Positions 28,591 to 52,643 of a stretch of 64,000 nucleotides of DNA are shown here, in pieces (position 1 is the stretch's first letter; each line of letters begins with the position of its first letter). The DNA is from a virus (Duplodnaviria > Caudoviricetes), in IMG/VR virus record IMGVR_UViG_3300028596_000001; one strand, written 5' to 3'. Made by a program: the position numbers and the translations under genes. The notes under the pieces were generated by a model. The model saw only the letters and a program-made list of their open reading frames with translations, was not told the origin of the DNA and made no database searches.

Positions 28591-31530
28591 ATGGTTGATT
28601 TTGTAGAAACTCCCAACTTCGATGAGGCCATTGCCATCATCGAGACGGGTGAAAAAGTTCTGGGTGGCGCTGGCGGTCCTGCAAACCGTCCGCTGCAAGC
28701 CCTGGCTAACCGTACTCGCTACCTGAAAGATTTCCTGGATGGTATCGTCAGCGGTGGCATTGGTGGCGTTATCCTCATGGGCGTTCTGGAAACCCAGGCC
28801 GAACTGGATGCCATCCCTACTGAAGGTCTGAAGGTCGGCACCGCCTACTTCCTGAACTTCGAGATGCGCGTGTGGAACGGCACCGAGTGGGGTAACTCCG
28901 GTTCCCTGCGTGGTGAACGCGGCCTCAACATCCTGGGTGTCTGGCCTGACGCAGTTCCACTGCCGGACCACACTCAGAACGTCATCGGTGACGCTTACCT
29001 GTGGAAGAACGACATTCACGTTCTCGTGCCTTCGTTCGATCCTGAAGATCCGGAAGCCTCCGACCTGCCTCCTATCTGGGAAGGTCTGGGCATCCGTGGT
29101 CCAGACGGTAAGAGCACCTTCGACATTTACCGCGAACAACCAGGTAACGCCAACAAGACCCAAGCCCAGTTCCTGGCTGAACAGAAAGGTGAGCAAGGCG
29201 ACGACGCCTATGAAGCCTGGCTGAAGATCCCGGTGAACGAAGGCAAGTCTCGTGAACAGTGGGTTGAAGAAACCCGTGGTCTGCAAGGTGAAGTCGGTCC
29301 TGCCCGTGGTGCGTTCGTTGTAGCTGGTTCGAAGGCCAACGCTGGTCAACTCCCTACCCCGGGCGATGAGACCAAAGCCTGGTACGTAGGTATCGATCTG
29401 TACGTTTGGGTCGAAGCCGACCAGAACTACATCATGATCCCTGGTATCGCTGGTAAGTCGGCGTACACCATCTGGCTGGAATCTGATCCAGAGCATGAAG
29501 GTCAGACCGAAGCTCAGTTCCTGGAGTCGCTGAAAGGTGCTAAAGGTAATGACTCTGTCGTACCTGGTCCAAAAGGTGACGACGGTCGTAACCTGCGTAT
29601 CCTCGGTACCGTTGGTACCAGTTCCGAACTGGCCCAGCTCGAAGACCCAGTAGACCAGGATGCCTATGCCACCCTGGACACTGGTCGCCTGTGGATGTTC
29701 CTGCCTCTGGAAGGTGGCTGGAAAGATCTCGGCCCATGGCGTGGTGTGGATGGTAAGTCTGCCTTTGAAGTATGGCAAGACAACGGCCATCCAGAAGGTA
29801 CCCCAGCTGAGTTCTTTGCTTCGCTGAAAGGTAAAGACGGTATCAACATGGAGATCCGTGGCGTTGTTGCCACTCTCGCCGCGTTGCCAGCCGTTCCGCA
29901 AGAGCAATGGCTGTATGCCGTTCAGGATGAGCGTTCGTTCTACCTGTACCTCGATGGTGCTTGGGCGAACATCGGTACCTACGGTATCGACGGTGTTGAC
30001 GGTAAAGACGGTAAGTCTCTCGATATCGTCAAGATCCTCACCGAAGAAGACGACGTTCCGCCTGCCGCTGATGCCAACACCAAGGGCAAAGCGTATATCT
30101 CCTGGAACCCACGTGATGTCTACGTGAACGTTTCCGGCGGTGCATGGGAGAATGCCGGTCCGTTCATGCCTCTGGGTCAACAAGGTATCCAGGGTGTTGC
30201 CTTCCGTCCTAAGGGTACCGTCATGGCCCTGGGCGACCTGCCTCCTATTGGCGGCGATGGTAACGCGGTAGAAGGTGATACCTACTCGGTTATCGAAGAA
30301 GGCAAGAAGCTCTACACCGTTGTTGACGGTCAGTGGAGCGGTCCTCTGGACATCGTCGGCCCTATGGGTAAAGACGGTCCTCAGGGTATCCCTGGTGCGT
30401 TGATGCCTATTAAAGGTGTCTACAAGACCATGGCTCTGCTGCGTGCGGCTCACCCTACTGGTGCGCTGGGCGACGCATACATGATCATCGATCCGGATGC
30501 CTTGCCAGAACCTATCCGTAACCTGGCCATCTGGTCGGTTGAGGGTAACGACTGGGTTGACACCGGTCCGTCGGGTATCAAAGGTGAGCAAGGTAATCCT
30601 GGTAACGACTCCACCGTACCAGGTCCTCAGGGTGAGAAAGGTAGCCAATGGCTGACCCTCGCTACCCAAGATGCTCCTTCTGCTGCGTTCAACGGTCGTC
30701 CTGGTGACTGGGCGGTTAACCAACTGCTGCGCGTCTACTACAAAACTGTTAACCAAGGCTGGGTGTACTGGGGCCAACTGGTCGCGGGTGATGTTAACTC
30801 GCCTCTGCTCGCCGAAGGTAAAGTGGTACGTCTGGGTAATACCTGGATCCCACTGCCTGTAGACGAAGTAGAGAGCCCAGTTGAAGGTGAGTTCTACGCT
30901 CGTAAGAAAGTTGGCGAAGATCAAGGCAACCCAGTGATGGCTTGGGCCGCGCTGCCTGACATCATCGCTGACCTGCAAACCAAACACGACACCAAGCAAT
31001 TCGTCCGGGTCTACAAGACCACTGACTCGGTGCCTGTGTGGGCTGAACTGCAGCTGCCTGCGGCTGGTATCTCCGATATCGCCAACCCGAAAGACGGTGC
31101 TCTGTACCTGCGCTTCGCCAAGAACGGTACCTGGGTCGAATACATCCCGGCTCCGAACGACGCCAAGCAATACGTACAGAAGGGAGGTAACTGGATTTCC
31201 TTCGACCGTTATGACATGCCTGTTAAAGCCATGTCCGCTACCGGTTCCGTGGATCCGACTGTCGACCAGGTTGTAGCGCTGGATAACTCCGCCGTTGCTG
31301 CCAAGACCATTACCCTCGGTGACGGTCCTAAAGGTGCGAACGCTCGGGCTCAAACCCTGATCGTAACGGTTACTGGTTCTGCTGGCGTTGTTAGCTTCGC
31401 AGCTACTGGTGCAACCACCCTGAGCTGGCACGGTGGTACTCCGCCTACTCTGTCGGGTTCCGTTACCAACATCGTGTTCTGGTGGACCGGTAGCCGTTGG
31501 ATCGGTCAGCTGGGTGCGGTAGTCCCTTAA
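28591..31530 (+). CDS. Collagen-like tail fibre protein
   Basis: N-terminal IETGEKVLGGAGGPANRPLQALANRTRYLK fibre anchor; repeated G-X-Y triplets alternating with GDAY/DLP modules. Confidence 0.85.
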   Translation: MVDFVETPNFDEAIAIIETGEKVLGGAGGPANRPLQALANRTRYLKDFLDGIVSGGIGGVILMGVLETQAELDAIPTEGLKVGTAYFLNFEMRVWNGTEWGNSGSLRGERGLNILGVWPDAVPLPDHTQNVIGDAYLWKNDIHVLVPSFDPEDPEASDLPPIWEGLGIRGPDGKSTFDIYREQPGNANKTQAQFLAEQKGEQGDDAYEAWLKIPVNEGKSREQWVEETRGLQGEVGPARGAFVVAGSKANAGQLPTPGDETKAWYVGIDLYVWVEADQNYIMIPGIAGKSAYTIWLESDPEHEGQTEAQFLESLKGAKGNDSVVPGPKGDDGRNLRILGTVGTSSELAQLEDPVDQDAYATLDTGRLWMFLPLEGGWKDLGPWRGVDGKSAFEVWQDNGHPEGTPAEFFASLKGKDGINMEIRGVVATLAALPAVPQEQWLYAVQDERSFYLYLDGAWANIGTYGIDGVDGKDGKSLDIVKILTEEDDVPPAADANTKGKAYISWNPRDVYVNVSGGAWENAGPFMPLGQQGIQGVAFRPKGTVMALGDLPPIGGDGNAVEGDTYSVIEEGKKLYTVVDGQWSGPLDIVGPMGKDGPQGIPGALMPIKGVYKTMALLRAAHPTGALGDAYMIIDPDALPEPIRNLAIWSVEGNDWVDTGPSGIKGEQGNPGNDSTVPGPQGEKGSQWLTLATQDAPSAAFNGRPGDWAVNQLLRVYYKTVNQGWVYWGQLVAGDVNSPLLAEGKVVRLGNTWIPLPVDEVESPVEGEFYARKKVGEDQGNPVMAWAALPDIIADLQTKHDTKQFVRVYKTTDSVPVWAELQLPAAGISDIANPKDGALYLRFAKNGTWVEYIPAPNDAKQYVQKGGNWISFDRYDMPVKAMSATGSVDPTVDQVVALDNSAVAAKTITLGDGPKGANARAQTLIVTVTGSAGVVSFAATGATTLSWHGGTPPTLSGSVTNIVFWWTGSRWIGQLGAVVP

Positions 31531-32298: not shown

Positions 32299-33357
32299 AT
32301 GCTCGAACTTCTACACGGAGGAACCGGGGGCGTACGCCCTACGTACCCTAACTCTGGTCCTGGTACTAAGGTTTTACAATACGGCAACGAGGAGATCGGT
32401 TACTTTGGCGAGGTTACAGGGGCACAGTTGTTTACCCCCAAAGAGTACATGACTCTTGCCAGAGCGTATTTCGGTAACCATGATAACACTGCCGATGCTT
32501 TGTCCAACATCTGGCTGAAGTACTTCTTTAAAGGTAAAGTTGTTTTCATCGCCAAAATTCCTTTTGCGGCCAACGTCAACTGGAATGAAATTTATTTGTC
32601 CGGTTTGGTTTACGGAACTCAGAACAATGGCAAGTACCCTGCGGGCAACGAACCGACGTGGCAATACAACCCGTTGTTCAAACAGGAAGGCCAGCGCAAT
32701 TGGGCTTTGATCCCTCGTCTGATCAAAGGTGTGGCGACCGATCCGTTTACTACCTTCAACGACGCGGCGTATACGGGTAGTGAATGGACGGAGTTGGTGG
32801 GTCGCTGCTTCGTTGGTCCTAACCCACCGGTTAGTGAGAAGTGGGCATCGTTCTCGGTTGCAGATCTTCGCTTCGACACCAACCGTTATTTCTGGGCTCA
32901 AGAAACCGACAACGCTAACGTCAACAATGCGTTGTACCTAACCAACGGTTCTGCCACGTTCTTTACCCGCACTAGCTTGGTTAAGACCTACCAGGCCATG
33001 TGGTATCGACCAGTGCTGGAATTGGTTGATGCTGCAAACGGTGGTGTGTTCCCTGCTGCTAATATTAAGATCAAGCCGTCTGAGGATATCGCGGATATCT
33101 GGTTGCTTGATACTGATATTGAACCAGGCGACCCCGATCTCAACTTGGGTATTAACAACATCCGTATTGAAGACCAAGGCGTTAAAGACCTCCTGGTTAC
33201 TTACTCCTTCGATCCAAGCACTCCTAGCCGGCCAAACAACATCAATGGCATGGTAGAAAGCAGTGACTGGAAATTGTTTGGCATTACTGGCGTTTATGTT
33301 GAGCCAAGCAACTTCGAACTCCCGCCAACGTATTACGAAATCCTGAAAGGCGAGTGA
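32299..33357 (+). CDS. Virion structural protein, gp131-like paralog family
   Basis: SGPGTK.L..G.E..GYFGEV, WLKYF.KGK, WYRPVLEL. Confidence 0.75.
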   Translation: MLELLHGGTGGVRPTYPNSGPGTKVLQYGNEEIGYFGEVTGAQLFTPKEYMTLARAYFGNHDNTADALSNIWLKYFFKGKVVFIAKIPFAANVNWNEIYLSGLVYGTQNNGKYPAGNEPTWQYNPLFKQEGQRNWALIPRLIKGVATDPFTTFNDAAYTGSEWTELVGRCFVGPNPPVSEKWASFSVADLRFDTNRYFWAQETDNANVNNALYLTNGSATFFTRTSLVKTYQAMWYRPVLELVDAANGGVFPAANIKIKPSEDIADIWLLDTDIEPGDPDLNLGINNIRIEDQGVKDLLVTYSFDPSTPSRPNNINGMVESSDWKLFGITGVYVEPSNFELPPTYYEILKGE

Positions 33358-33358
33358 T

Positions 33359-34306
33359 ATGAAAAACATGATTAAGTGGGATAACCTCACTCAAATGCCG
33401 TTCACCACTAACGTCTACCGTGGTAACGCCCCGCTGGACCGGGCTGCATTGTCCAACCCCATTGCTACGTTGACTGCTGGTGAAACCCAGTACGAAGACG
33501 ACGTGGTTCGTGGGCAGACTTACTACTACGTGCTCGAAACCGTAAAGGGTAGCGACAAGGTCCCTAGCAACAACATCCAAGTAGTTGCCTTGCCGAAAAA
33601 AGGTCCTGGTCCTATCGCTTTGAAACAAGGCGATTACAACTACGGCTATTACGGTACGATCCCTACACGTGACTTCATTGGCACGCAGGGCATCCTCGAC
33701 CAAACCAAACTTGTACTCAACGCCGGCAGCGCGATCCTACAACTTTCCCCTACCTGGCATAAATACATCCGTAACGGTAAGGTGTTGTACGTACCTAACG
33801 GCCCGCTGATTTCCGGGTTGTGGTATAAAAACGTCTATGACGCTGGATGTGTATTTGGTGTCGCCGGTCCTGGTCCTTACAACGCTGGCGCTGATGTACC
33901 ACAGAGCAAAACTGTGGATATCGGTGGTACCAAGTTCAAAGTACGTCTGATGAAAGGTTGGAGTGATGATGTAACGGTTCAGCCACCATCTTCCCCGGCT
34001 TCGTCAGAACTCCTTAACCCGCTCCTTAACGAATGGGACGACCTGGTCTACCCGTTGTATGAGTACGTACCTACGTCCCAGCGGATGGCCAACGTGCAAC
34101 AGCAGACCCGCACCCAACTCAAACTCGACGCTACTAACGTCGGACGGTTTATGTGTCAAGAACGTTGGCAGGGTAGTACACCAATTTTCCGTGGTATAAC
34201 TGTCGCTGGTCGCCCAGCAGTAACCACTATCGGTGTTGACGGTAACGTTAGCATTACTGCTAACTTCATGTCGTGGTGGCCTGTACTGGAACTCGTCGAA
34301 AACTAA
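33359..34306 (+). CDS. Virion structural protein: FN3-like N-terminus plus gp131-like domain
   Basis: IKW..TNVYRG..QYEDDVVRGQTYYY; GPGP..GDY.YGYYG; WWPVLEL. Confidence 0.75.
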   Translation: MKNMIKWDNLTQMPFTTNVYRGNAPLDRAALSNPIATLTAGETQYEDDVVRGQTYYYVLETVKGSDKVPSNNIQVVALPKKGPGPIALKQGDYNYGYYGTIPTRDFIGTQGILDQTKLVLNAGSAILQLSPTWHKYIRNGKVLYVPNGPLISGLWYKNVYDAGCVFGVAGPGPYNAGADVPQSKTVDIGGTKFKVRLMKGWSDDVTVQPPSSPASSELLNPLLNEWDDLVYPLYEYVPTSQRMANVQQQTRTQLKLDATNVGRFMCQERWQGSTPIFRGITVAGRPAVTTIGVDGNVSITANFMSWWPVLELVEN

Positions 34307-34316
34307 GGAGATCTAA

Positions 34317-35288
34317 ATGAGCATTAAAATCGCTTGGTCTCCTTTCGGCAGTGTGCCCGACCAACTGACGTTGTTTTGGAGTGATTCCCCGTTCACTGCC
34401 GAGACCCTACCACCTGACAGTGTAAACATCCCGCCAGCTAACGTTGATTACGTGGACGATGGTGTAGCGGAACGTGCTACACGGTACTACATGCTGCTGG
34501 CTAAAAAGGCTAACAAGCCAGATCATTACAGCCAATGTCTGTGCTATGCCAACTGGAAGAAGACCGGTCCAGGGCGTAGCACTATCCTGCGTGGCGACTG
34601 GAACATTGGGTTGATGGACATTATTACTAGTAGTCAACTCTTCACCGCAAGTGAATTGAAAACGGCACTAGGATTAGGTGTGGGCTTTGGCGGTAACGTA
34701 AACGATGCGGTGGCTGGTCATTGGTATAAGTTCATCCGCAGGGGTAAGATTATTTTTATCCCTACCGCGCCACTTTCCAATACCGGCACCATACGTTGGA
34801 CTGATTTGTATAACGCGGGTCTTGTGTACGGCGTGGATGGTCCTGGGGCGGCTCCATTTAATTTAACGACTGCCGGTTTAACACCTCCAGTAACAGCTCC
34901 AGTCAACCAAAAGCGAGTAGTCGTTAAAGACGGGCACAGCTTCTTGGTGCGTACTCCAACCCTCAGCACGCTACCTACCGACCAGTTCATGGGAGCTAAC
35001 AAGGATACGTTCCCCGGTGGTGAGTGGTGGGAAACCATGGTCATGGTGACCCTTAACCATATAGAGGCGGATGACGTTAGCAAAATACCACCGCTCAGGT
35101 GGGGTGATTCTGCTGGGGCACCAGCAAACTGGTGGTCTTGTGGTGCGACACCGCACTTCAGGCCAAACACATTCGCCACCTGCCTAAGTGCCAACAACTG
35201 GTCTGGTTATACCCCTCGTGACGCTAAGGGGACCTTGGCATCTAACTGGGTCAACTGGGTGCCTGTACTCGAATACATTCCTGAATAA
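34317..35288 (+). CDS. Virion structural protein: FN3-like N-terminus plus gp131-like domain
   Basis: IKIAW..DYVDDGV..ATRYY; GPGR..LRGDW; WVPVLEY. Confidence 0.75.
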   Translation: MSIKIAWSPFGSVPDQLTLFWSDSPFTAETLPPDSVNIPPANVDYVDDGVAERATRYYMLLAKKANKPDHYSQCLCYANWKKTGPGRSTILRGDWNIGLMDIITSSQLFTASELKTALGLGVGFGGNVNDAVAGHWYKFIRRGKIIFIPTAPLSNTGTIRWTDLYNAGLVYGVDGPGAAPFNLTTAGLTPPVTAPVNQKRVVVKDGHSFLVRTPTLSTLPTDQFMGANKDTFPGGEWWETMVMVTLNHIEADDVSKIPPLRWGDSAGAPANWWSCGATPHFRPNTFATCLSANNWSGYTPRDAKGTLASNWVNWVPVLEYIPE

Positions 35289-35299
35289 AGGTAAACACC

Positions 35300-36217
35300 A
35301 TGGGAATCAGAATTGAATGGGTTGACCCTAACCAGGCCAACGCCCCCGTCAGCATCTATCGGTCTGAAAACAAGATGCTTGACGACAACAATCTGCCTGA
35401 ACCCATCGCGGTAGTTCCTAGCAACACCGGATTCTACCTCGATGAGGACATCATCCGTAATAAACTGTATTACTACCGTGTGGCTACTCCTGGCGTAGAG
35501 GGGAGCGGTGAGCTGGTCATTACCCCTAACAAGGGGTTGATGTTCATGCCGTACACAGGCCCGGGTCCCAAGAACATCATTCGTGGTGATTACGAGTTCG
35601 GTATCTTTGGTCGCATGCCCATGGGTAACTTGTTCAGTGCCCAAGAGCTCGTTAGTTGGTCCGGTATCGATGTTATCACCGAAACAGTTCCAGGCATCCC
35701 TAACGAATGGGTTAAGTTCATCCACAAGGGCAAGATCTATTTCACACCGACGATGCCTATTGCAACCAAGGTATCATGGCTCAGCCTGTATAACGCTGGC
35801 TTGGTTTACGGGGAGATCCCGAAGGTTGAGTGGCCGCCGCTCGTCAAAGATACTTACCCATTCGTCCCGCAGAACAAAACGATCTCCCTAAGAGAGCATT
35901 TGTTCGGTGTTCGTTTCCCTACGTCGCGTAAGAATTCGCAAAGTACCGCCGGGGATCAAGCCAGTCTGATTGGGGGAGAATGGGATCAGTTCATTGCCAG
36001 CCTGTATGTGGTAAGGACTTTCCCCGACGCTAACGGTAATCCACAATTGGACGACAACGGCAACCCACCATACGCCAGCTTCACTACCGACGTTAGCGTG
36101 GCCGGTTGTTTGAACCGCGGGTACTCCACCGCAGGGGATAGTACATTTAACTCATTGCCTAGTGGCACCACCGATGCTGTAAACGGCTGGCGTCCGTTGC
36201 TTACACTGATCCTTTAA
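35300..36217 (+). CDS. Virion structural protein: FN3-like N-terminus plus gp131-like domain
   Basis: IRIEW..SIYRS..FYLDEDIIRNKLYYY; GPGPK..RGDY; GWRPLLTL. Confidence 0.75.
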   Translation: MGIRIEWVDPNQANAPVSIYRSENKMLDDNNLPEPIAVVPSNTGFYLDEDIIRNKLYYYRVATPGVEGSGELVITPNKGLMFMPYTGPGPKNIIRGDYEFGIFGRMPMGNLFSAQELVSWSGIDVITETVPGIPNEWVKFIHKGKIYFTPTMPIATKVSWLSLYNAGLVYGEIPKVEWPPLVKDTYPFVPQNKTISLREHLFGVRFPTSRKNSQSTAGDQASLIGGEWDQFIASLYVVRTFPDANGNPQLDDNGNPPYASFTTDVSVAGCLNRGYSTAGDSTFNSLPSGTTDAVNGWRPLLTLIL

Positions 36218-36228
36218 AGGAACCGCAT

Positions 36229-38229
36229 ATGGAGATTTTCCTAAGTGTCCTGGATGGGAAAAAGGAATATCCCTACCCAGATGACAAATATCTGGGGGAA
36301 GTGGCCAGCGGTGATTTCATTGACGGTGTTACTCTGGCTGCCAATTTGGGTCTTACTGCGGGCATCTCCCAAAACGCTACAACCAGCTGGCTCAAGTTCC
36401 AAGCCCAGGAAGGCTATACGTTCCTGATTCCTAAGAAGAGTTTGCGCTATCGCCTCTCTTGGGATTCCTTGAATACGGCTAACGTAATCAATGGAGTCAA
36501 GACGGTCCTGGTTCAGGGCAACCTTTATAAGGTCCGGGTGCTCAAAGGCGCTGAAGCGAATCCAACTGGATGGACTTCAGCGCTGGGCCAGGATAACCCA
36601 GCTATTGCGAATCCTTCAGAATGGAACCGCTTCGTGCACAGGGTCAGTGCAAACAATCCTGGACTTGCCTCCAACTGGGAAAGTTTCAGCAATACTGACC
36701 TGGGTGTTGCCAACGGTACTACCATCGGGCGAATGAGCATCTGTACGGAAGAAGTTGCTGCCATGTCTGGCTATGTGATTGGACGTGGTAATACAGCGTT
36801 GTCGGAATTCAACTACTTCACCAAGCTCGATGGAACGAGCACTGCGCAAAACCATTACGGCTGGCGCCCGGTATTGGAGTTGATTGGCCCTGCACCTTAC
36901 TACCCTGATTCAGGTCCAGGTAGTAAGTACCTAATAACCGGTGACGAGCAATTGGGTTACTTCGGTGAAGTTAGTGCCGCTGATCTGATGACCCACATCG
37001 AACTACGTAACCACCTTAATCCGGCAATGGTTGCGGACATTCGCGTTCAATCTGATTTGGGTTGGTTCAAGTTCTACCATAAAGGGAAGGTGAAGTTCAT
37101 CGGCAAGGGTAGTTTCTCTACCTACCTGTCCTGGAACACGTTGTATGCTAACGGCGGTGTCTACGGCACTAACGATAACGGCAAATACCCGGCCTCAACT
37201 CCGGTTAACCAATATCGTCCTGTGACGTTGGTTCGTGAAGGTGTTGATTGTAAGTTGGTTCCTCGGCTGATTACCGGCGGTCCAGACCCTTACACATCAG
37301 CTACCGCCTACCACACGGATAACGAGTACGGTGATCTCCTTTATCGGATGGTTACTGGCGCGCATCCTAACGCAGGTTTGTGGGCTAGCTACACAACTAC
37401 TGCGCTGCGACTAAACCAAGCCCACACGTGTGTTAGTACACAGGACACTAACTCAGCTAACTCCATGATCCGTGGTTATTCTGGTAACCTACACGCCGGC
37501 GCACAAAACTTAAGCAAGGCCGATATCAACGGCTACAGTCAACACATCCGCATGGTGTTGGAACTGGAGAGTATTGTTAGACGACCTTTGTTGGCTTTGG
37601 ACCCTTCTGATCAAACAGCAGGTTCTACGGTTATCGAAGATAAATCCGGTCGTGCCCTCACAGTAAGCAACGTTGGTGTGGTGGTATCTGATGACGGTCC
37701 TAAACCAGGCGTTAAGTCGATGTACTTCGACGGTACTGGATGGAATTATCTGCGTATCCCGCATGCGCAAGTACCTAACATCCTCCGTGGTGATTTCACC
37801 ATTGAGTATTGGTACAAACCGCAAACTAATGCCAACGGCTTGAGTGCTGTATTCAACCAATGGCAGCAAGCTGCTGGCCTGGGCGGTGTGGTTTGCTCGA
37901 CGGCAAGCCCGACAGCTCAAACCTGTCACTTCGGTCCATTCAACGAGAACGGTGCGTTAATAACAGCAAGCGCTCCTCCACCAGGTTGGGTGCATGAAGC
38001 GATTACCCGTAAGGGTGATACCTTCACACGTTGGCGTGATGGTAAGTCTGTGGGTACAGCTCTCAGCGCTACGTCCAGAGACAAGATAGCTATTGACTGG
38101 ACTGTCGGTGCCTACTTTGGCCCTGCCGGTACTGTACCAGCTAACGGGGCGACTGTGTTGAATGGTTGGGTGGCTAAGCTGGCTATTACTGGCTATTGCA
38201 AGTACACTGCGGAATTTACCCCTGAATAA
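36229..38229 (+). CDS. Virion structural protein: two gp131-like domains plus LamG/ConA-like domain
   Basis: Two GEV..WLKF/WFKF units; C-terminal GDFTIEYW, WVHEAITRKG, CKYTAEFTPE. Confidence 0.75.
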   Translation: MEIFLSVLDGKKEYPYPDDKYLGEVASGDFIDGVTLAANLGLTAGISQNATTSWLKFQAQEGYTFLIPKKSLRYRLSWDSLNTANVINGVKTVLVQGNLYKVRVLKGAEANPTGWTSALGQDNPAIANPSEWNRFVHRVSANNPGLASNWESFSNTDLGVANGTTIGRMSICTEEVAAMSGYVIGRGNTALSEFNYFTKLDGTSTAQNHYGWRPVLELIGPAPYYPDSGPGSKYLITGDEQLGYFGEVSAADLMTHIELRNHLNPAMVADIRVQSDLGWFKFYHKGKVKFIGKGSFSTYLSWNTLYANGGVYGTNDNGKYPASTPVNQYRPVTLVREGVDCKLVPRLITGGPDPYTSATAYHTDNEYGDLLYRMVTGAHPNAGLWASYTTTALRLNQAHTCVSTQDTNSANSMIRGYSGNLHAGAQNLSKADINGYSQHIRMVLELESIVRRPLLALDPSDQTAGSTVIEDKSGRALTVSNVGVVVSDDGPKPGVKSMYFDGTGWNYLRIPHAQVPNILRGDFTIEYWYKPQTNANGLSAVFNQWQQAAGLGGVVCSTASPTAQTCHFGPFNENGALITASAPPPGWVHEAITRKGDTFTRWRDGKSVGTALSATSRDKIAIDWTVGAYFGPAGTVPANGATVLNGWVAKLAITGYCKYTAEFTPE

Positions 38230-42997: not shown

Positions 42998-43546
42998 TTA
43001 TTTAAATTTGTCGATCCAGGACCACTTAATAGTAGCTGGTCCTACACTTTCCAGAGGGTTCTTTGGATCGCCGAATGGATGAATGAACATGGTGGGGGAA
43101 GCGTTAGTATTAAAGATCCTCACACGCCCTACGAACTGCATATGAACAGGATCCAGGATGCAGGTCTCCTCGGTCACACACGCATCCCAGATCATGCGCT
43201 GCGCCGTCAGCTCGGCAGGAAGGATGATGTCCTCCTTACCGGTGAAACGCGGGCGAAATACCGAGTACTCCATATAGGGGTAGTTCTTCTTCTCGAACAA
43301 ATGAGCCACATTAGGGAACACTCCCCTGAAACACTGCTCGATAGTAGGAGAACAAGAGATACGTGGGAGATTAGGCTCAGGGTAAGGGAAACTGATATCC
43401 CCTATTATTTCCTGAGCTTCATCAAAACCATCTGGGTTGTTAGGATGCCACATCCCTTGGAACGTAGAGTTCTTGAAAGAGATGTGGAACATTTCCTTAA
43501 ATCCAGGTTTGGACTTCACCGTCCGGTACTTGAGTTTATCGCCCAT
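42998..43546 (-). CDS. Putative ADP-ribosyltransferase-fold protein
   Basis: FHIS (strand 1), PRISCSPTIEQC (S-x-S), WDACVTEETCIL (late Glu). Confidence 0.5.
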   Translation of the reverse strand: MGDKLKYRTVKSKPGFKEMFHISFKNSTFQGMWHPNNPDGFDEAQEIIGDISFPYPEPNLPRISCSPTIEQCFRGVFPNVAHLFEKKNYPYMEYSVFRPRFTGKEDIILPAELTAQRMIWDACVTEETCILDPVHMQFVGRVRIFNTNASPTMFIHPFGDPKNPLESVGPATIKWSWIDKFK

Positions 43547-44102
43547 GGTCAATGTGTCCTATGGTCCCCACGTTGACGTATGCGGACCGGTCTTTAGAGG
43601 TTGGTCGATAGTTACTACGTGGCATCTTTGCACGCCACATGGCTTCCTCTACCCACCCCTCACGATGAAGATTACGAGGGACCGGGTCCTTTGTATGGTT
43701 ATCCCGATCCCCATTAAAGAGATAATCACTGTACGTCCTACCAATGATCTCCTTGATGTTGCGAGCAGCGATCTTCCAGTGGTTGATCTGGTATTTCAAC
43801 AGACAGCCTACCCGCCAACCAGCTACCTTTATATCAATTCCATCCACTGTCACATATGGGGCGAATTTAGGCATCTGGATGGCGCGTACAAACGGATTGG
43901 TGACGTTAGTGACAGGAACGTGCATGTACTGGACCCAATCGTCCACTTCGGCACCACAGGGTACGTGGCGATACGCCGCCGGAGGTTCCCAGCGCAATGT
44001 CACCTTCGCAGGGCGGTACTCCCGGGTGATTGGATCCTGGCGCATGAAACTTATTTCTTTTTCAATAGCCACGCTTCGTTTCCTTTTCTGGGTATCTGGC
44101 AT
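43536..44102 (-). CDS. Hypothetical protein ending in EF-Tu N-terminal/P-loop peptide
   Basis: C-terminus [18 protein letters not shown], read codon by codon at 43539-43592. Confidence 0.7.
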   Translation of the reverse strand: [188 protein letters not shown]

Positions 44103-45330
44103 CGTTCAACCGCTGACGCGTCTTAACGATGTGGTTACGCACCCTAGACATGCAACTGGTGTGGGTTAGTCTAACCAGGAGGTTGCCGTTGCGATCACGG
44201 CCAGGCATACGCCCGTACAACTGGATGTGGACCAAAGACTCTACCGCACGTTCAGCCCAAGGCTCCAAAGGAAGAAAAACCTTAAGGGGTTCCATGGCGT
44301 GTTGGTACATGTATTCGACGTCACGATCTATAATCGCTCCGCTGGAACTACTCTGAGCGCGCATAGCGGCTCGAAGTGTTATCGAGTCACAGATCCAACT
44401 GTCTACGTCACCACGCACCATCCTGGCCGGGAAAGTATGTATCTTCTTTCCACCAACATAGAGAGTATTGTACTCGAGTTTGATATATGTTGGATTGGCA
44501 TTAGCGCTGAACTCTTCCACGGCTTTGGCGAAGAAAGAGCTGAACACTGGTACAGAAAGAGAGCCGGTGTAAGGCCAGTCTTCGTAAGTATCGGAAAAAC
44601 GTAGCCCGCTGAACAGATTGCGCTCACGTTCGATCCCGTCCCTGTAGTGGTTAATGAAACCACTGTCCTCCAGGCAAAGGAACAGAGCGTTCTTACGTAG
44701 CCCGCCGAGGAACGAATTACGCCAGATGCCTGGGTGACGATAACGGCTTGGGTACAGGTAAGGGCTTTGGGGCAATGCTAGTTCACCACGACGGAAACCG
44801 CCACCTTTTGCCTGGCCATGCCTCACGGTTTGCCACATGTGGTGGCCCATGATCATTTCCTCCGAGGTGAGTGGTGTTCTGGCGGCTGTAAGGCAGTCCT
44901 TGGTCATGGAACTATGACCAGAATAGCGACTGAAGCTACCCAGCGGTAAACCATTACGAAGGTGCTTGTTCAGAGCATCAAGTCCGGTTGGCATTTCGGT
45001 TCCACAATTACCAAAAGGAGCGCTCACAACCACCGGAGCGCGCGTCAATAATGTACGTCCTCCGAAATAATCCCGGCATCTCTGGAGCATCTCCTTCCCT
45101 GCTGATGTTACCGGCGGATGACTGATTGTGCAGGTGAGGGGACCTTTTAATCCATCGGTTAACAACACCGCCCTGGCAGCAACATTTTTGGCATGGTCTT
45201 CGGCAGTAAGGTACTCGATCGACGGGTTCTTGGCGTTTTCCAGATGCTGGATTGCTTCTTCTACCGACATAGCTGGCAGATCCAGGAGAGTACGATCAAT
45301 CAAGCCTGGTGTAGGGGTTTTCTTGTCCAT
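44062..45330 (-). CDS. Hypothetical protein with degenerate RecA/DnaB-type motif relics
   Basis: Start moved to MDKKTP (GGAG RBS); PTGLDALNKHLRNGLPLGSF..SG.SSMTK and GGGFRRGEL. Confidence 0.65.
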   Translation of the reverse strand: MDKKTPTPGLIDRTLLDLPAMSVEEAIQHLENAKNPSIEYLTAEDHAKNVAARAVLLTDGLKGPLTCTISHPPVTSAGKEMLQRCRDYFGGRTLLTRAPVVVSAPFGNCGTEMPTGLDALNKHLRNGLPLGSFSRYSGHSSMTKDCLTAARTPLTSEEMIMGHHMWQTVRHGQAKGGGFRRGELALPQSPYLYPSRYRHPGIWRNSFLGGLRKNALFLCLEDSGFINHYRDGIERERNLFSGLRFSDTYEDWPYTGSLSVPVFSSFFAKAVEEFSANANPTYIKLEYNTLYVGGKKIHTFPARMVRGDVDSWICDSITLRAAMRAQSSSSGAIIDRDVEYMYQHAMEPLKVFLPLEPWAERAVESLVHIQLYGRMPGRDRNGNLLVRLTHTSCMSRVRNHIVKTRQRLNDARYPEKETKRGY

Positions 45331-45406
45331 CTTGAATTGCTCCGAACGATTATGGAGGTGTGTAATAGACCGACCTACGTCGTATGGAATTACTACATCG
45401 TCATCT

Positions 45407-45985
45407 TTAGGCACAGAGCATTTCCTCCAGCGGGTGTTTGCCGAAGTCACAGGTACGTGTACACTCACCAACAGTAACAGTAACTTGCTTGTTCATGAAA
45501 GGTAGCTTTGCCACACGGATGTGTGCCAGTGTATCCTTCCATTTGCCGCTCAGGTCGTACTCGAACTCTCTGTCCCCGAGGGTTTTCAGGAATTCCAGCA
45601 CGAAGTGTTTCAGGATGTCGTACATTTGCATTGTAGAAGGACGTCCGTCCAACATGAATGCTTTGAAGAGGTTCATCCACGCCTCATCAAGATCGTGGCT
45701 CCCCGCCGCTACAGTGTAGGAGTAACGACGACTACGGGTAAACCAGTAATACTTGGTAGCACTGCCGCTGCTGAACACAACCATTTTGGTGTGCTGGGCA
45801 TGAGTAACACCGAACAGGGTGATGTTGCTACCCAGATTCGGTTTGACGACATGAACACGACCCGAAGCCATCGCACTCGCACGATGCTGGGTGGTAGGGA
45901 TCAGTTGATCACGGTCAAGTACAACAACACCTTCCGACATATCGAAAGGGAATTCGTGTTTCAGTTCAAAAGCCTTAACCAACAT
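45407..45985 (-). CDS. Hypothetical protein (paralog of 46038..46499)
   Basis: 192 aa; shared LIP.T...S.L..NI.....T.Y.W core. Confidence 0.65.
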   Translation of the reverse strand: MLVKAFELKHEFPFDMSEGVVVLDRDQLIPTTQHRASAMASGRVHVVKPNLGSNITLFGVTHAQHTKMVVFSSGSATKYYWFTRSRRYSYTVAAGSHDLDEAWMNLFKAFMLDGRPSTMQMYDILKHFVLEFLKTLGDREFEYDLSGKWKDTLAHIRVAKLPFMNKQVTVTVGECTRTCDFGKHPLEEMLCA

Positions 45986-50975: not shown

Positions 50976-52643
50976 TTAATTGCCCAGGCTAACAGAGTCC
51001 AGTTTGTTGCTGACCATGATGCTCGACATGTTCGCCAGGATCTTGGCAGTCTGCATACCACCTTTCAGAGCGGTGATGGACGCGTAGGCCGTGTCGTAGA
51101 TCCCGAGTTCTTCAGGCTGGCCACGACGACCGGTTGCCAGATCGAGTACATCTTTCTGCTCGTTGGCGTCCTGGAAGATACCTTCCATGAGGATTTCGTT
51201 TTGCTTGTGCGCAACGTCGATAACCCCACCGAGGATAGCCTTCCATTCGTTCGGGAACCAGATGGTTTCCGGGCCGGCGACTTCCTGCTCCACGAGCACC
51301 GCTACGGTGTCCATTGCCTTGATGAGGGTAGTACCAACCCCAGGCACGATACCGTTCACCAGCGCGCTCTTGACCGCCTTGATGACGTCTTCGAAACGGT
51401 CCTTACGTTCCTTCACGTCAGATTCGGTTTCGCCACCGACCCAGATGGTGATTACCTTACCGGTCATATTCCGGATACGGGTTTCGTCGAAACGAGCACG
51501 ACGGTTGAAACGGTTCAGTCCGTCATAGTTACCCAGCGCTTCACTGATCTCTTCCACACGCTCAACGATACGCGCCTTGGCTGCTTCACCAGGTTCGAAG
51601 ATCGAACGTACGTTGTTGGTAGTGAGCGGATCGGTAACCATGGTGATGTCGGTGTGCAGTACCTGGTCCAGGTTGGCGAACATAGGAACACCGAACATGA
51701 TAGCCAGGTCTTGCATCATCAGGCTCCCTACCGAGCCACCAGCACCGTTTACACGGCAACCGACGAACTGCATGTTCAGAGGAACCTGTTGCTGGGCTGC
51801 CCGCTGTTGCAGAGCGCCGTTGAAAGCGATCACCACGTTGTCCATGTTGGTCTCGATCGAACGAGTGATCAACAGGACCGTGACCAGACCTTCTTCGTGT
51901 TTGACGTCCTTGAAATGTTCCAGTACCGCGAACAGATCTTTCGGATCGTTACCACGAATGTAGTCATCGACGATTACCGGAATATAACGATCATAGGTAA
52001 CCTGGGTACGGTTCTTACCGGCATACAGCGGGTTGCTGTAGACGATGCCCAGATTCAGACCGTCGGTACGCACGACTTTGTCTTCGGCTTCCACACCGTG
52101 AACCAGTTCGATTGATGGGAACGAGTCTTCGTTTTCACGATACAGGTTCACCACCAGCGACGACAGCTTGACGTCGTTGTTCGACGAGGTGCGGGCCATG
52201 TCGTACAGGCGCTTGTCAGACACGTCGATGTGGATGGTGTTGTTCTGGAGCTCGGTGATCCACATCTGGCAGAGCTTGTCGATGAAAGCTTGTTCCTGGT
52301 AGGTATCGAACTCGCGATACAGCTTGAACAGTTCAGCCATCAGCAACGTGGTAGTGGTGGTACCGTCACCGCACTCTTCATCGGTCTTGATCGGTGCTTC
52401 GGTAGCCACCTTGTTGACCAGCTCTTTACGCGGGTCATTGAACTTGATGGAACGGGCAACGGTTACCCCGTCTTTGGTGACCTTGGGTTTGGTACCAGTG
52501 CTGATGACCGCCAGCTTACCGTTTGGGCCCATGGTCGCTACTACGGCCTTACGTACATCTTCGACCACTTCCGACACCAGTTCACCAGTTTGGGCGATGG
52601 TCAGGAAATCAACAATACCAGTGCTATTATCAAAACCGCGCAT
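50976..52643 (-). CDS. groEL: Phage chaperonin (GroEL-like, phage EL gp146 type)
   Basis: TMGPNG, TKDGVTVARSI, EECGDGTTT, VGGETESDVKERKDRFED, GIVPG.G, GIYDTAYASITAL; no GGM tail. Confidence 0.95.
   Translation of the reverse strand: MRGFDNSTGIVDFLTIAQTGELVSEVVEDVRKAVVATMGPNGKLAVISTGTKPKVTKDGVTVARSIKFNDPRKELVNKVATEAPIKTDEECGDGTTTTTLLMAELFKLYREFDTYQEQAFIDKLCQMWITELQNNTIHIDVSDKRLYDMARTSSNNDVKLSSLVVNLYRENEDSFPSIELVHGVEAEDKVVRTDGLNLGIVYSNPLYAGKNRTQVTYDRYIPVIVDDYIRGNDPKDLFAVLEHFKDVKHEEGLVTVLLITRSIETNMDNVVIAFNGALQQRAAQQQVPLNMQFVGCRVNGAGGSVGSLMMQDLAIMFGVPMFANLDQVLHTDITMVTDPLTTNNVRSIFEPGEAAKARIVERVEEISEALGNYDGLNRFNRRARFDETRIRNMTGKVITIWVGGETESDVKERKDRFEDVIKAVKSALVNGIVPGVGTTLIKAMDTVAVLVEQEVAGPETIWFPNEWKAILGGVIDVAHKQNEILMEGIFQDANEQKDVLDLATGRRGQPEELGIYDTAYASITALKGGMQTAKILANMSSIMVSNKLDSVSLGN

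Follow-up and report, generated by a model that had tools for sequence, protein, structure and literature searches.

A copy of the EF-Tu N-terminal segment retained on a jumbo-phage protein and recurring on unrelated phage proteins

Introduction

What does a piece of the elongation factor EF-Tu do on a phage protein that otherwise bears no resemblance to a GTPase? The question is raised by a 64,000-nucleotide stretch (hereafter the window) of the IMG/VR virus record IMGVR_UViG_3300028596_000001 (Duplodnaviria; Caudoviricetes), in which a 188-residue open reading frame (ORF; hereafter the motif ORF) stops directly after a peptide resembling the N-terminal/P-loop segment of EF-Tu (the EF-Tu-like block, Table 1). 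An earlier note on this DNA, made from the letters alone, had drawn attention to this peptide and had proposed that it acts as a short mimic of EF-Tu. We find that selection keeps the copy in related phages and that the same segment recurs on many unrelated phage proteins; on these two grounds, the block probably has a job.

EF-Tu lies at the center of several phage-host conflicts: it is cleaved by the Lit protease and by the type IV Thoeris caspase, is built into a sensor complex by Avs7, and is ADP-ribosylated at its P-loop by TreTu (PMC9825190 for TreTu). A full-text search of the literature returned no paper describing the motif in phage proteins or its function. What is already known is that some of its carriers are annotated as 'putative elongation factor Tu' and that the PHROGs database lists carriers as being of unknown function. 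We file the present finding as a putative variant of host-factor mimicry.

A segment of EF-Tu on a protein without a G domain

The C-terminus of the motif ORF agrees with the N-terminal/P-loop segment of EF-Tu at 11 of 14 positions. This is the best match in the six-frame translation of the window and the sole site of its kind, and in 60 mononucleotide shuffles of the window the best match to the same segment had 5-7 identities and never more than 7. The ending that the earlier note reported is thus genuine. When the last 29 residues alone were compared with the PDB, the top matches were mostly EF-Tu chains, with a few of eIF2-gamma lower down (E 8e-4 to 0.05). Likewise, a profile of the family to which the motif ORF belongs retrieved almost exclusively EF-Tu from all PDB sequences (E 8e-7 to 1e-4); the best 59 matches are EF-Tu, and EF-1 alpha (E 0.017) is the sole other protein among the matches shown.

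Positions 157-181 of this profile align without gaps to EF-Tu residues 5-29, and F5, P10, V12-H19 and D21 (EF-Tu numbering) are common to EF-Tu and the family. At the positions of V20, H22 and G23 the family is variable, at that of K24 most members have K or R, and T25 is not retained. In the motif ORF itself, V176-G182 corresponds to strand beta-1 of EF-Tu (V12-G18), and H183, D185 and R188 correspond to H19, D21 and K24. The copied part (EF-Tu residues ~5-24) runs from within the N-terminal arm through strand beta-1 into the beginning of the P-loop, and its wording is of the EF-Tu type rather than that of EF-G, IF2, LepA or SelB. The wording given in the earlier note for Pseudomonas EF-Tu agrees with an EF-Tu chain in the PDB (4iw3), while the claimed match of the preceding DRS can be had only by admitting a one-residue gap.

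The remainder of the ORF is without GTPase similarity, as had been claimed: a Pfam scan returned no match at E <= 0.1, and only one of 13 family members matches PF00009 GTP_EFTU, at E 0.055 and in the motif region only. There is no Walker A motif (GxxxxGK[ST]), as the window protein reads GHIDHGR and then stops. Among the 15 family members that keep the motif, the second Gly of the loop is P, S, A or E in six, the Lys has become Arg in eight and His or Thr in two more, and the Ser/Thr is lost. Ending as it does at G1, the ORF has no room for G2-G5 motifs; neither these nor a match to the whole G domain were found, and the downstream genes are not GTPase-like. With the GTP-binding residues G23, K24 and T25 decayed in this manner, the motif ORF, judged from its sequence, cannot be a GTPase.

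We also considered and rejected several other ways in which such a segment might come to lie here. A split or fused GTPase, or a fusA-tufA relic, has no GTPase remainder nearby, the 411-aa downstream gene of one relative (L099) being instead a fusion with an ADP-ribosyltransferase (ART) domain (see below). An exon next to an intein or intron is contradicted by the family alignment, which has no intein blocks after the motif. A circularly permuted piece of the G domain was prompted by the likeness of REEWVEKAMW to the EEWVEKIM helix of EF-Tu 6i8r (residues 183-201); here, the pre-motif block on its own finds no EF-Tu in the PDB, and 42 EF-Tu sequences score no better than their reversed copies. 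The pre-motif block (DPVPRN..REEWVEKAMWEMGMSRSNY) is not EF-Tu-like.

Selection on the protein

An exhaustive phmmer search of 1.8 billion representatives yielded 13 homologs of the motif ORF (E 5e-21 to 9e-5), to which a profile search added more. The resulting family is small, with about 20 representatives, and occurs solely on metagenomic jumbo-phage contigs, the long ones all being 229-244 kb in length. No relatives were found in 50,697 phage records (DNA and protein search) or in 185,579 species genomes, and searches of IMG/VR and the JGI metagenomes returned only the same lineages of the family.

Within the family, P[YH]VNVGT[IV]GHxD is kept by 15 of 18 members (alignment A2) and persists in orthologs at 25-43% identity, its VNVGTIGH being tied with EEWVEKAM for the best conserved 8-residue block. 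Across seven orthologs the motif is spelled with 2-4 different codons at each degenerate position, with N, V, G, T, G, H and D invariant. Such scrambling of the synonymous sites around fixed residues indicates that selection acts on the protein and that the capture is old, and excludes a role as DNA or RNA in this family, be it as the ribosome-binding site of the next gene, as a mimic of the tuf mRNA or as an att/homing site; in relatives, moreover, the next gene has no overlap with the motif. The block is hence a short linear mimic in the sense of a copy of a defined host segment held by protein-level selection. The earlier note had argued for such retention, as against a motif lost or scrambled in related phages or a one-off recent capture of tuf DNA; the first of these is answered by the 15 members that keep the motif and the second by the synonymous sites, which are fully diverged among the seven orthologs.

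These observations also bear on the reading that what remains here is a tuf fragment in decay, without present function, or that the resemblance is one of chance. Loss of the motif in a few lineages would accord with it, but a chance origin sits badly with 11 of 14 identities as against at most 7 in shuffles, and decay with conservation across orthologs whose synonymous sites are saturated and with a place among the best conserved blocks of the family. We give this reading very little probability, the synonymous-site and shuffle results bringing it close to refuted.

The placement of the motif at the extreme C-terminus is found solely in the window phage, with most relatives running on for 5-90 residues past it. 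This placement is a local, derived accident; in relatives, a tail and a small gene separate the motif from the ART gene, and the window phage has neither. The description as a C-terminal tag accordingly fits the window phage but not its relatives, in which the motif is internal.

Recurrence on unrelated phage proteins

We searched IMG/VR with a degenerate DNA pattern for [VI]N[VI]GTIGH[VI]DHG, which 91 loci carry. Many of these are full-length EF-Tu genes, and 30 are ORFs ending at most 250 residues from the motif. These ORFs were grouped by BLAST with the motif masked, and the window family, PaBG gp294 and Machinavirus gp215 were included. Not counting truncated genuine tuf genes, this gave at least 13 groups without a GTPase domain that are unrelated outside the motif, so that it is indeed appended to unrelated ORFs, a point that the earlier note had wanted checked; the window family was linked to no other motif-bearing group. 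The carriers retain the same 12-16 residues at N-terminal, internal and C-terminal positions. Three PHROGs families of 'unknown function' (phrog_12626, phrog_27465 and phrog_28329) are built on the motif. The motif ORF matches phrog_12626 at E 0.0085, with residues 171-188 on profile positions 31-48 of 109 only, and no full-length match to phrog_12626 or phrog_27465 was found.

Among cultured phages, tblastn located carriers in phages of Erwinia, Salmonella, Pseudomonas, Vibrio, Burkholderia and Shewanella. The Machinavirus carrier is a protein of 110 aa, recorded as 'putative elongation factor Tu' in Erwinia phage ChrisDB (gp215) and as 'putative GTPase' in Salmonella phage pSal-SNUABM-04 (gp195), in which the EF-Tu-like core ends in [SG]R with the Lys replaced by Arg. 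Further carriers occur in PaBG (gp294), Burkholderia FLC9, Vibrio 1.244.A, Vibrio henriette, Pseudomonas Jeremy and Shewanella 1/4. Two of these, FLC9 gp386 and the Vibrio 1.244.A protein, have an intact KFxRTxPHVNVGxIGH but a destroyed GK part, from which it follows that the shared part is EF-Tu residues ~4-19/21 and not the phosphate-binding residues.

This last point is central to the suggestion, already raised in the earlier note as a phosphate-binding peptide, that the block is a minimal phosphate-binding loop for GTP, ppGpp, NAD+/ADP-ribose or RNA, perhaps feeding or regulating an NAD-using neighbor. The pattern G-x-x-x-x-[G]-[KR] does survive in many members, the neighbor of the motif ORF is by its fold an NAD-dependent type of enzyme (see below), the very basic tails of many other carriers suggest RNA or DNA binding, and the Tawfik laboratory has reportedly shown binding of both nucleotides and nucleic acids by short beta-(P-loop)-alpha peptides. 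However, the ligand-binding residues (second Gly, Lys and Ser/Thr) are the least conserved, the loop is the very part destroyed in FLC9 gp386 and Vibrio 1.244.A, and the window protein stops before any alpha-1 helix. As the conserved part is EF-Tu ~4-21 rather than GK[ST], we consider a phosphate-binding loop distinctly improbable.

The carriers show a range of architectures and settings. An EF-Tu N-terminal head is fused to an HNH endonuclease in one locus (L087:3319-3873; phrog_131, E 1e-43) and to an apparent SEC-C-type zinc motif, read from the sequence (CPCRSGKKFKKCHG), in another (L069:6238-6462, minus strand). Basic tails with a near-terminal Trp (..KRRNWWE, ..QYKHWR, ..NRRNRWS, ..YHKGRW) recur, the unrelated carriers with basic tails including L125:1498-1821, L126:1495-1896, L127:1489-1668, L043:2586-3209 and L129:1279-1650; these tails hint that the carriers have a second function in common, for example binding to RNA or to the ribosome. 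In Machinavirus, a gene for a GNAT enzyme ('ribosomal-protein-alanine acetyltransferase') lies directly upstream of the motif gene (L102:2872-5095 in ChrisDB; L103 in pSal-SNUABM-04), and a macrodomain gene ('Appr-1-p processing' in the record annotation) lies four or five genes downstream of it.

The downstream gene has a predicted ADP-ribosyltransferase fold

The gene that follows the motif ORF belongs to phrog_10766, and its ATG at 43546 falls within the last codons of the motif (the ATGGGCGATAA overlap), just as the earlier note had described. The family is unannotated among the phage records examined, and the window protein is a distant homolog of g082 of Yersinia phage phiR1-37, annotated as a phage structural protein. 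Its AlphaFold2 (AF2) model is good (pLDDT 83, pTM 0.80). The Foldseek matches of this model are weak, yet nearly all are to ART toxins, and in an exhaustive alignment to 48,161 PDB representatives almost every one of the 50 rows listed is an ART-fold chain. The Z scores are modest (pertussis S1 5.8, the best; PltA, Scabin and TreX 5.7 each; Arr 4.9; TreTu 4.0) and the list is uniform. The look-alikes in the Atlas are Arr, RES, Pertussis_S1/Scabin-like and DUF3990. On the strength of these models we accept the predicted ART fold, in line with the earlier description of the gene as ART-like. H21, R62, S64 and E127 are invariant in the family and Y91 nearly so, all of them within or immediately flanking predicted strands; the pattern fits a putative catalytic site of the H-Y/S-E type.

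The motif gene lies 0-0.9 kb upstream of the ART gene in all members of the clade that were examined. The two genes are co-oriented, with an overlap of stop and start on the window, and their order is kept clade-wide, mostly with one gene between them. Such co-oriented, coupled neighbors that stay together are what toxin-antitoxin or toxin-immunity pairs look like, although a single lineage amounts to one observation. The conserved arrangement in relatives runs from an overlapping upstream gene (314-469 aa) through the motif ORF to the phrog_10766 gene, and in most relatives either an acidic gene of 57-64 aa or a gene of 266 aa intervenes between the latter two, neither of which is present on the window. 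The acidic protein (..MRHMAWER.KGEL...FIKHVEDEGLHE) is conserved in relatives (L098:5700-5894, L100:5536-5709, L104, L106) and could be what actually inhibits the ART or partners it. The 266-aa gene of one relative (L096:5629-6429) corresponds to the N-terminal domain of ~225 aa that is fused to the ART domain in another (L099:5604-6839), at the same place.

Possible functions of the block

The reading that we prefer, tentatively and with somewhat less than even confidence, is that the block is a mimic or docking piece that works through its likeness to EF-Tu. It would present the EF-Tu segment to a factor that normally recognizes that segment, and would thereby act as a docking piece, a pseudo-substrate or a decoy. 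The family retains D185 and H183, the equivalents of EF-Tu D21, with its outward-pointing side chain, and of H19. It is this outward-pointing D21 of the P-loop that TreTu ADP-ribosylates, and when EF-Tu is on the ribosome, a pocket in the 23S rRNA, at the sarcin-ricin loop, takes up D21 (PMC9825190). The equivalent of D21 being kept while the nucleotide-binding residues drift, together with the ART-fold neighbor, makes an ART aimed at the P-loop aspartate, as TreTu is at D21, the most concrete candidate for the partner; the motif ORF might then hold the neighboring ART in check in the producing cell, or might guide it. The macrodomain gene annotated near the Machinavirus motif gene counts in favor of such a link to ADP-ribosylation. 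A second candidate partner would be the ribosomal sarcin-ricin loop, which encloses D21 of EF-Tu. The known EF-Tu-directed defenses were considered as readers of the motif and rejected, as none of them acts on EF-Tu residues 5-24: Lit cleaves EF-Tu at G59-I60, cleavage by the type IV Thoeris caspase follows R45 and R59, and the contacts of Avs7 are with domains II-III.

A number of observations weigh against working through likeness to EF-Tu, or against the link to the ART. Strand beta-1 is buried in folded EF-Tu, such that a linear copy mimics no native surface, and TreTu recognizes the folded, GTP-bound form of EF-Tu (PMC9825190). No motif lies within 4 kb of the ART gene in distant phages that possess this ART family (phiR1-37, Centimanus, FBKp24, L107 and L108), which makes the ART-motif pairing a trait of one clade; within that clade the adjacency is inherited synteny and counts as a single observation. 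A complex prediction for the ART-fold protein with residues 125-188 of the motif ORF, run without controls, scored 0.00 and speaks neither for nor against such a contact. A Pfam scan of ten neighbors of motif ORFs in six cultured phages gave no match, and hence no ADP-ribosylation gene. The motif, but not the gene, has been lost from three or four lineages (P0008, P0016, L124 and the truncated P0011). Finally, expression was looked for, and no RNA run contains the locus.

Several of these same points favor a different account, in which the block has been exapted for structure: the 5' end of tuf, captured long ago, would have supplied a strand-loop unit that is conserved for packing or for an oligomer interface, its likeness to EF-Tu being irrelevant. 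In EF-Tu, beta-1 is hydrophobic and buried, many carriers have an amphipathic helix after the motif, where EF-Tu has alpha-1, the gene can be retained when the motif is lost, and the uncontrolled complex prediction named no partner. On the other hand, a generic core strand has no need of invariant polar residues (N, T, H and D), nor does packing readily explain why the same 12-16 residues persist in 13 or more protein contexts that are unrelated. The AF2 model of the motif ORF, which is poor (pLDDT 67, pTM 0.27), also speaks against packing, since it leaves the block unpacked against the remainder of the protein. In this low-confidence model the block is a coil with a mean pLDDT of 53-66, which likely fits an exposed segment. 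On balance, we hold a purely structural role to be possible but unlikely.

The mimicry that we prefer might be extended to all carriers. In this wider form, the segment of EF-Tu residues ~4-21 would be a portable module that engages a factor recognizing EF-Tu, serving here as a pseudo-substrate or guide for the adjacent virion-type ART, itself aimed at the P-loop aspartate, and elsewhere as a decoy against EF-Tu-directed toxins or as a dock to the ribosome. That all parts of this proposal hold together appears rather doubtful at present.

Genomic context

Table 1. Positions of the features discussed, in window coordinates
Feature	Position	Strand	Remarks
Tail-fiber-like gene	28591-31530		adjoins the virion-protein run
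Paralogous virion structural protein genes	32299-38229	+	phrog_3589, phrog_1062, phrog_16120
Downstream gene	42998..43546	-	182 aa; phrog_10766; predicted ADP-ribosyltransferase (ART) fold
Motif ORF	43536..44102	-	188 aa; TAA stop directly after the EF-Tu-like block
EF-Tu-like block	43539..43595	-	residues 170-188 of the motif ORF
Second conserved family block	43599..43688	-	residues 139-168; predicted helix and linker directly before the EF-Tu-like block
Upstream gene	44062..45471	-	469 aa by ORF, 450 aa as called; overlaps the start of the motif ORF; syntenic in all relatives
GroEL-type chaperonin gene	50976-52643	-	phrog_5725, E 5e-107

The motif ORF lies in a minus-strand block of unknown genes adjoining the block of virion-protein genes. 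Its more likely start is the GTG at 44072, which would give a protein of 178 aa; this start is preferred for its Shine-Dalgarno sequence (AAGGAA), for being called in two public gene sets, and for leaving an overlap of 11 nt with the upstream gene, as in most relatives. The N-terminal two thirds of the protein are predicted to be beta-rich with one long helix, and no look-alike for its fold was found in the Atlas. The upstream gene is possibly a very distant and very old tandem paralog of the motif ORF family. It shares GGGFRRGE with the N-terminal extension of the long members of the family (P0007 type), with BLASTP at E 0.007 and an hhalign probability of 11%, and an HMM search linking it to the family gave no match; we regard the evidence for this relationship as weak.

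In their sequences, the virion-type genes and the GroEL-like gene of the window resemble those of phages of the phiKZ/EL type. The tail-fiber-like protein shares ~37% identity with its counterparts in Pseudomonas phage EL and further phages of the phiKZ type, and phage EL likewise codes for a chaperonin. Among the 50,697 phage records, however, the window has no close relative. A helicase gene is also present on the window. The DNA of the window is found in soil and wastewater metagenomes, and identical copies of the motif ORF occur in soil metagenomes on contigs of up to 233 kb.

Implications

A selected copy of an EF-Tu segment on at least a dozen unrelated phage proteins suggests that some factor, of the host or of the phage, reads this segment. 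With carriers in cultured phages (Machinavirus, PaBG, Jeremy, FLC9 and several Vibrio phages), the question becomes directly testable. If the link to the ART is true, it would offer the first hypothesis of a target for phrog_10766, a widespread family of virion-associated ARTs in jumbo phages. If the portable-module proposal is true, the carriers would form an undescribed class of target-mimic regulators or counter-defense proteins derived from the most abundant protein of the host.

Comparison with known systems

In comparison with EF-Tu itself (PDB 1EFC, 1OB2, 4IW3), the phage family shares the gap-free alignment and the common residues described above. It differs from EF-Tu in being without a G domain, G2-G5 motifs and a kept G23, K24 and T25, and in bearing the block at the C-terminal end of an unrelated protein. 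The motif ORF also resembles the proteins of phrog_12626, phrog_27465 and phrog_28329, which have the same core without a GTPase domain and likewise come from jumbo phages. Outside the motif it has nothing similar to these proteins, its architecture is another one, and its neighbor is an ART-fold gene, as opposed to their GNAT and macrodomain genes.

The N-terminus of EF-Tu is also the source of elf18, the epitope sensed by the plant receptor EFR. The motif overlaps the VNVGTIG end of elf18; unlike elf18, the block is internal or C-terminal. A link to EFR, which the earlier note had touched upon, is rejected, as the block is without the acetylated SKEKFER part and the phages that carry it infect bacteria of soil and water.

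Among toxin systems, the closest likeness is to TreTu/TriTu of Salmonella, in which an Rhs toxin, an enzyme of ART fold, acts on the P-loop of EF-Tu, and a small partner gene adjoins that of the enzyme; the phage motif, for its part, keeps an invariant aspartate at the position of the TreTu target D21. The two nevertheless differ in that TriTu is a lid over the active site rather than a copy of the target. The phage ART-fold protein also matches TreTu only weakly (Z 4.0, rank 22).

The nearest published parallel that we found is gp247 of Caulobacter phage Colossus, a truncated EF-Ts whose function has only been guessed (PMC3556154). In both cases a phage retains a short piece of a factor of the host elongation cycle without the remainder. 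They differ in the factor and in the piece retained: gp247 is a free-standing domain, whereas the EF-Tu-like block is a graft onto another protein.

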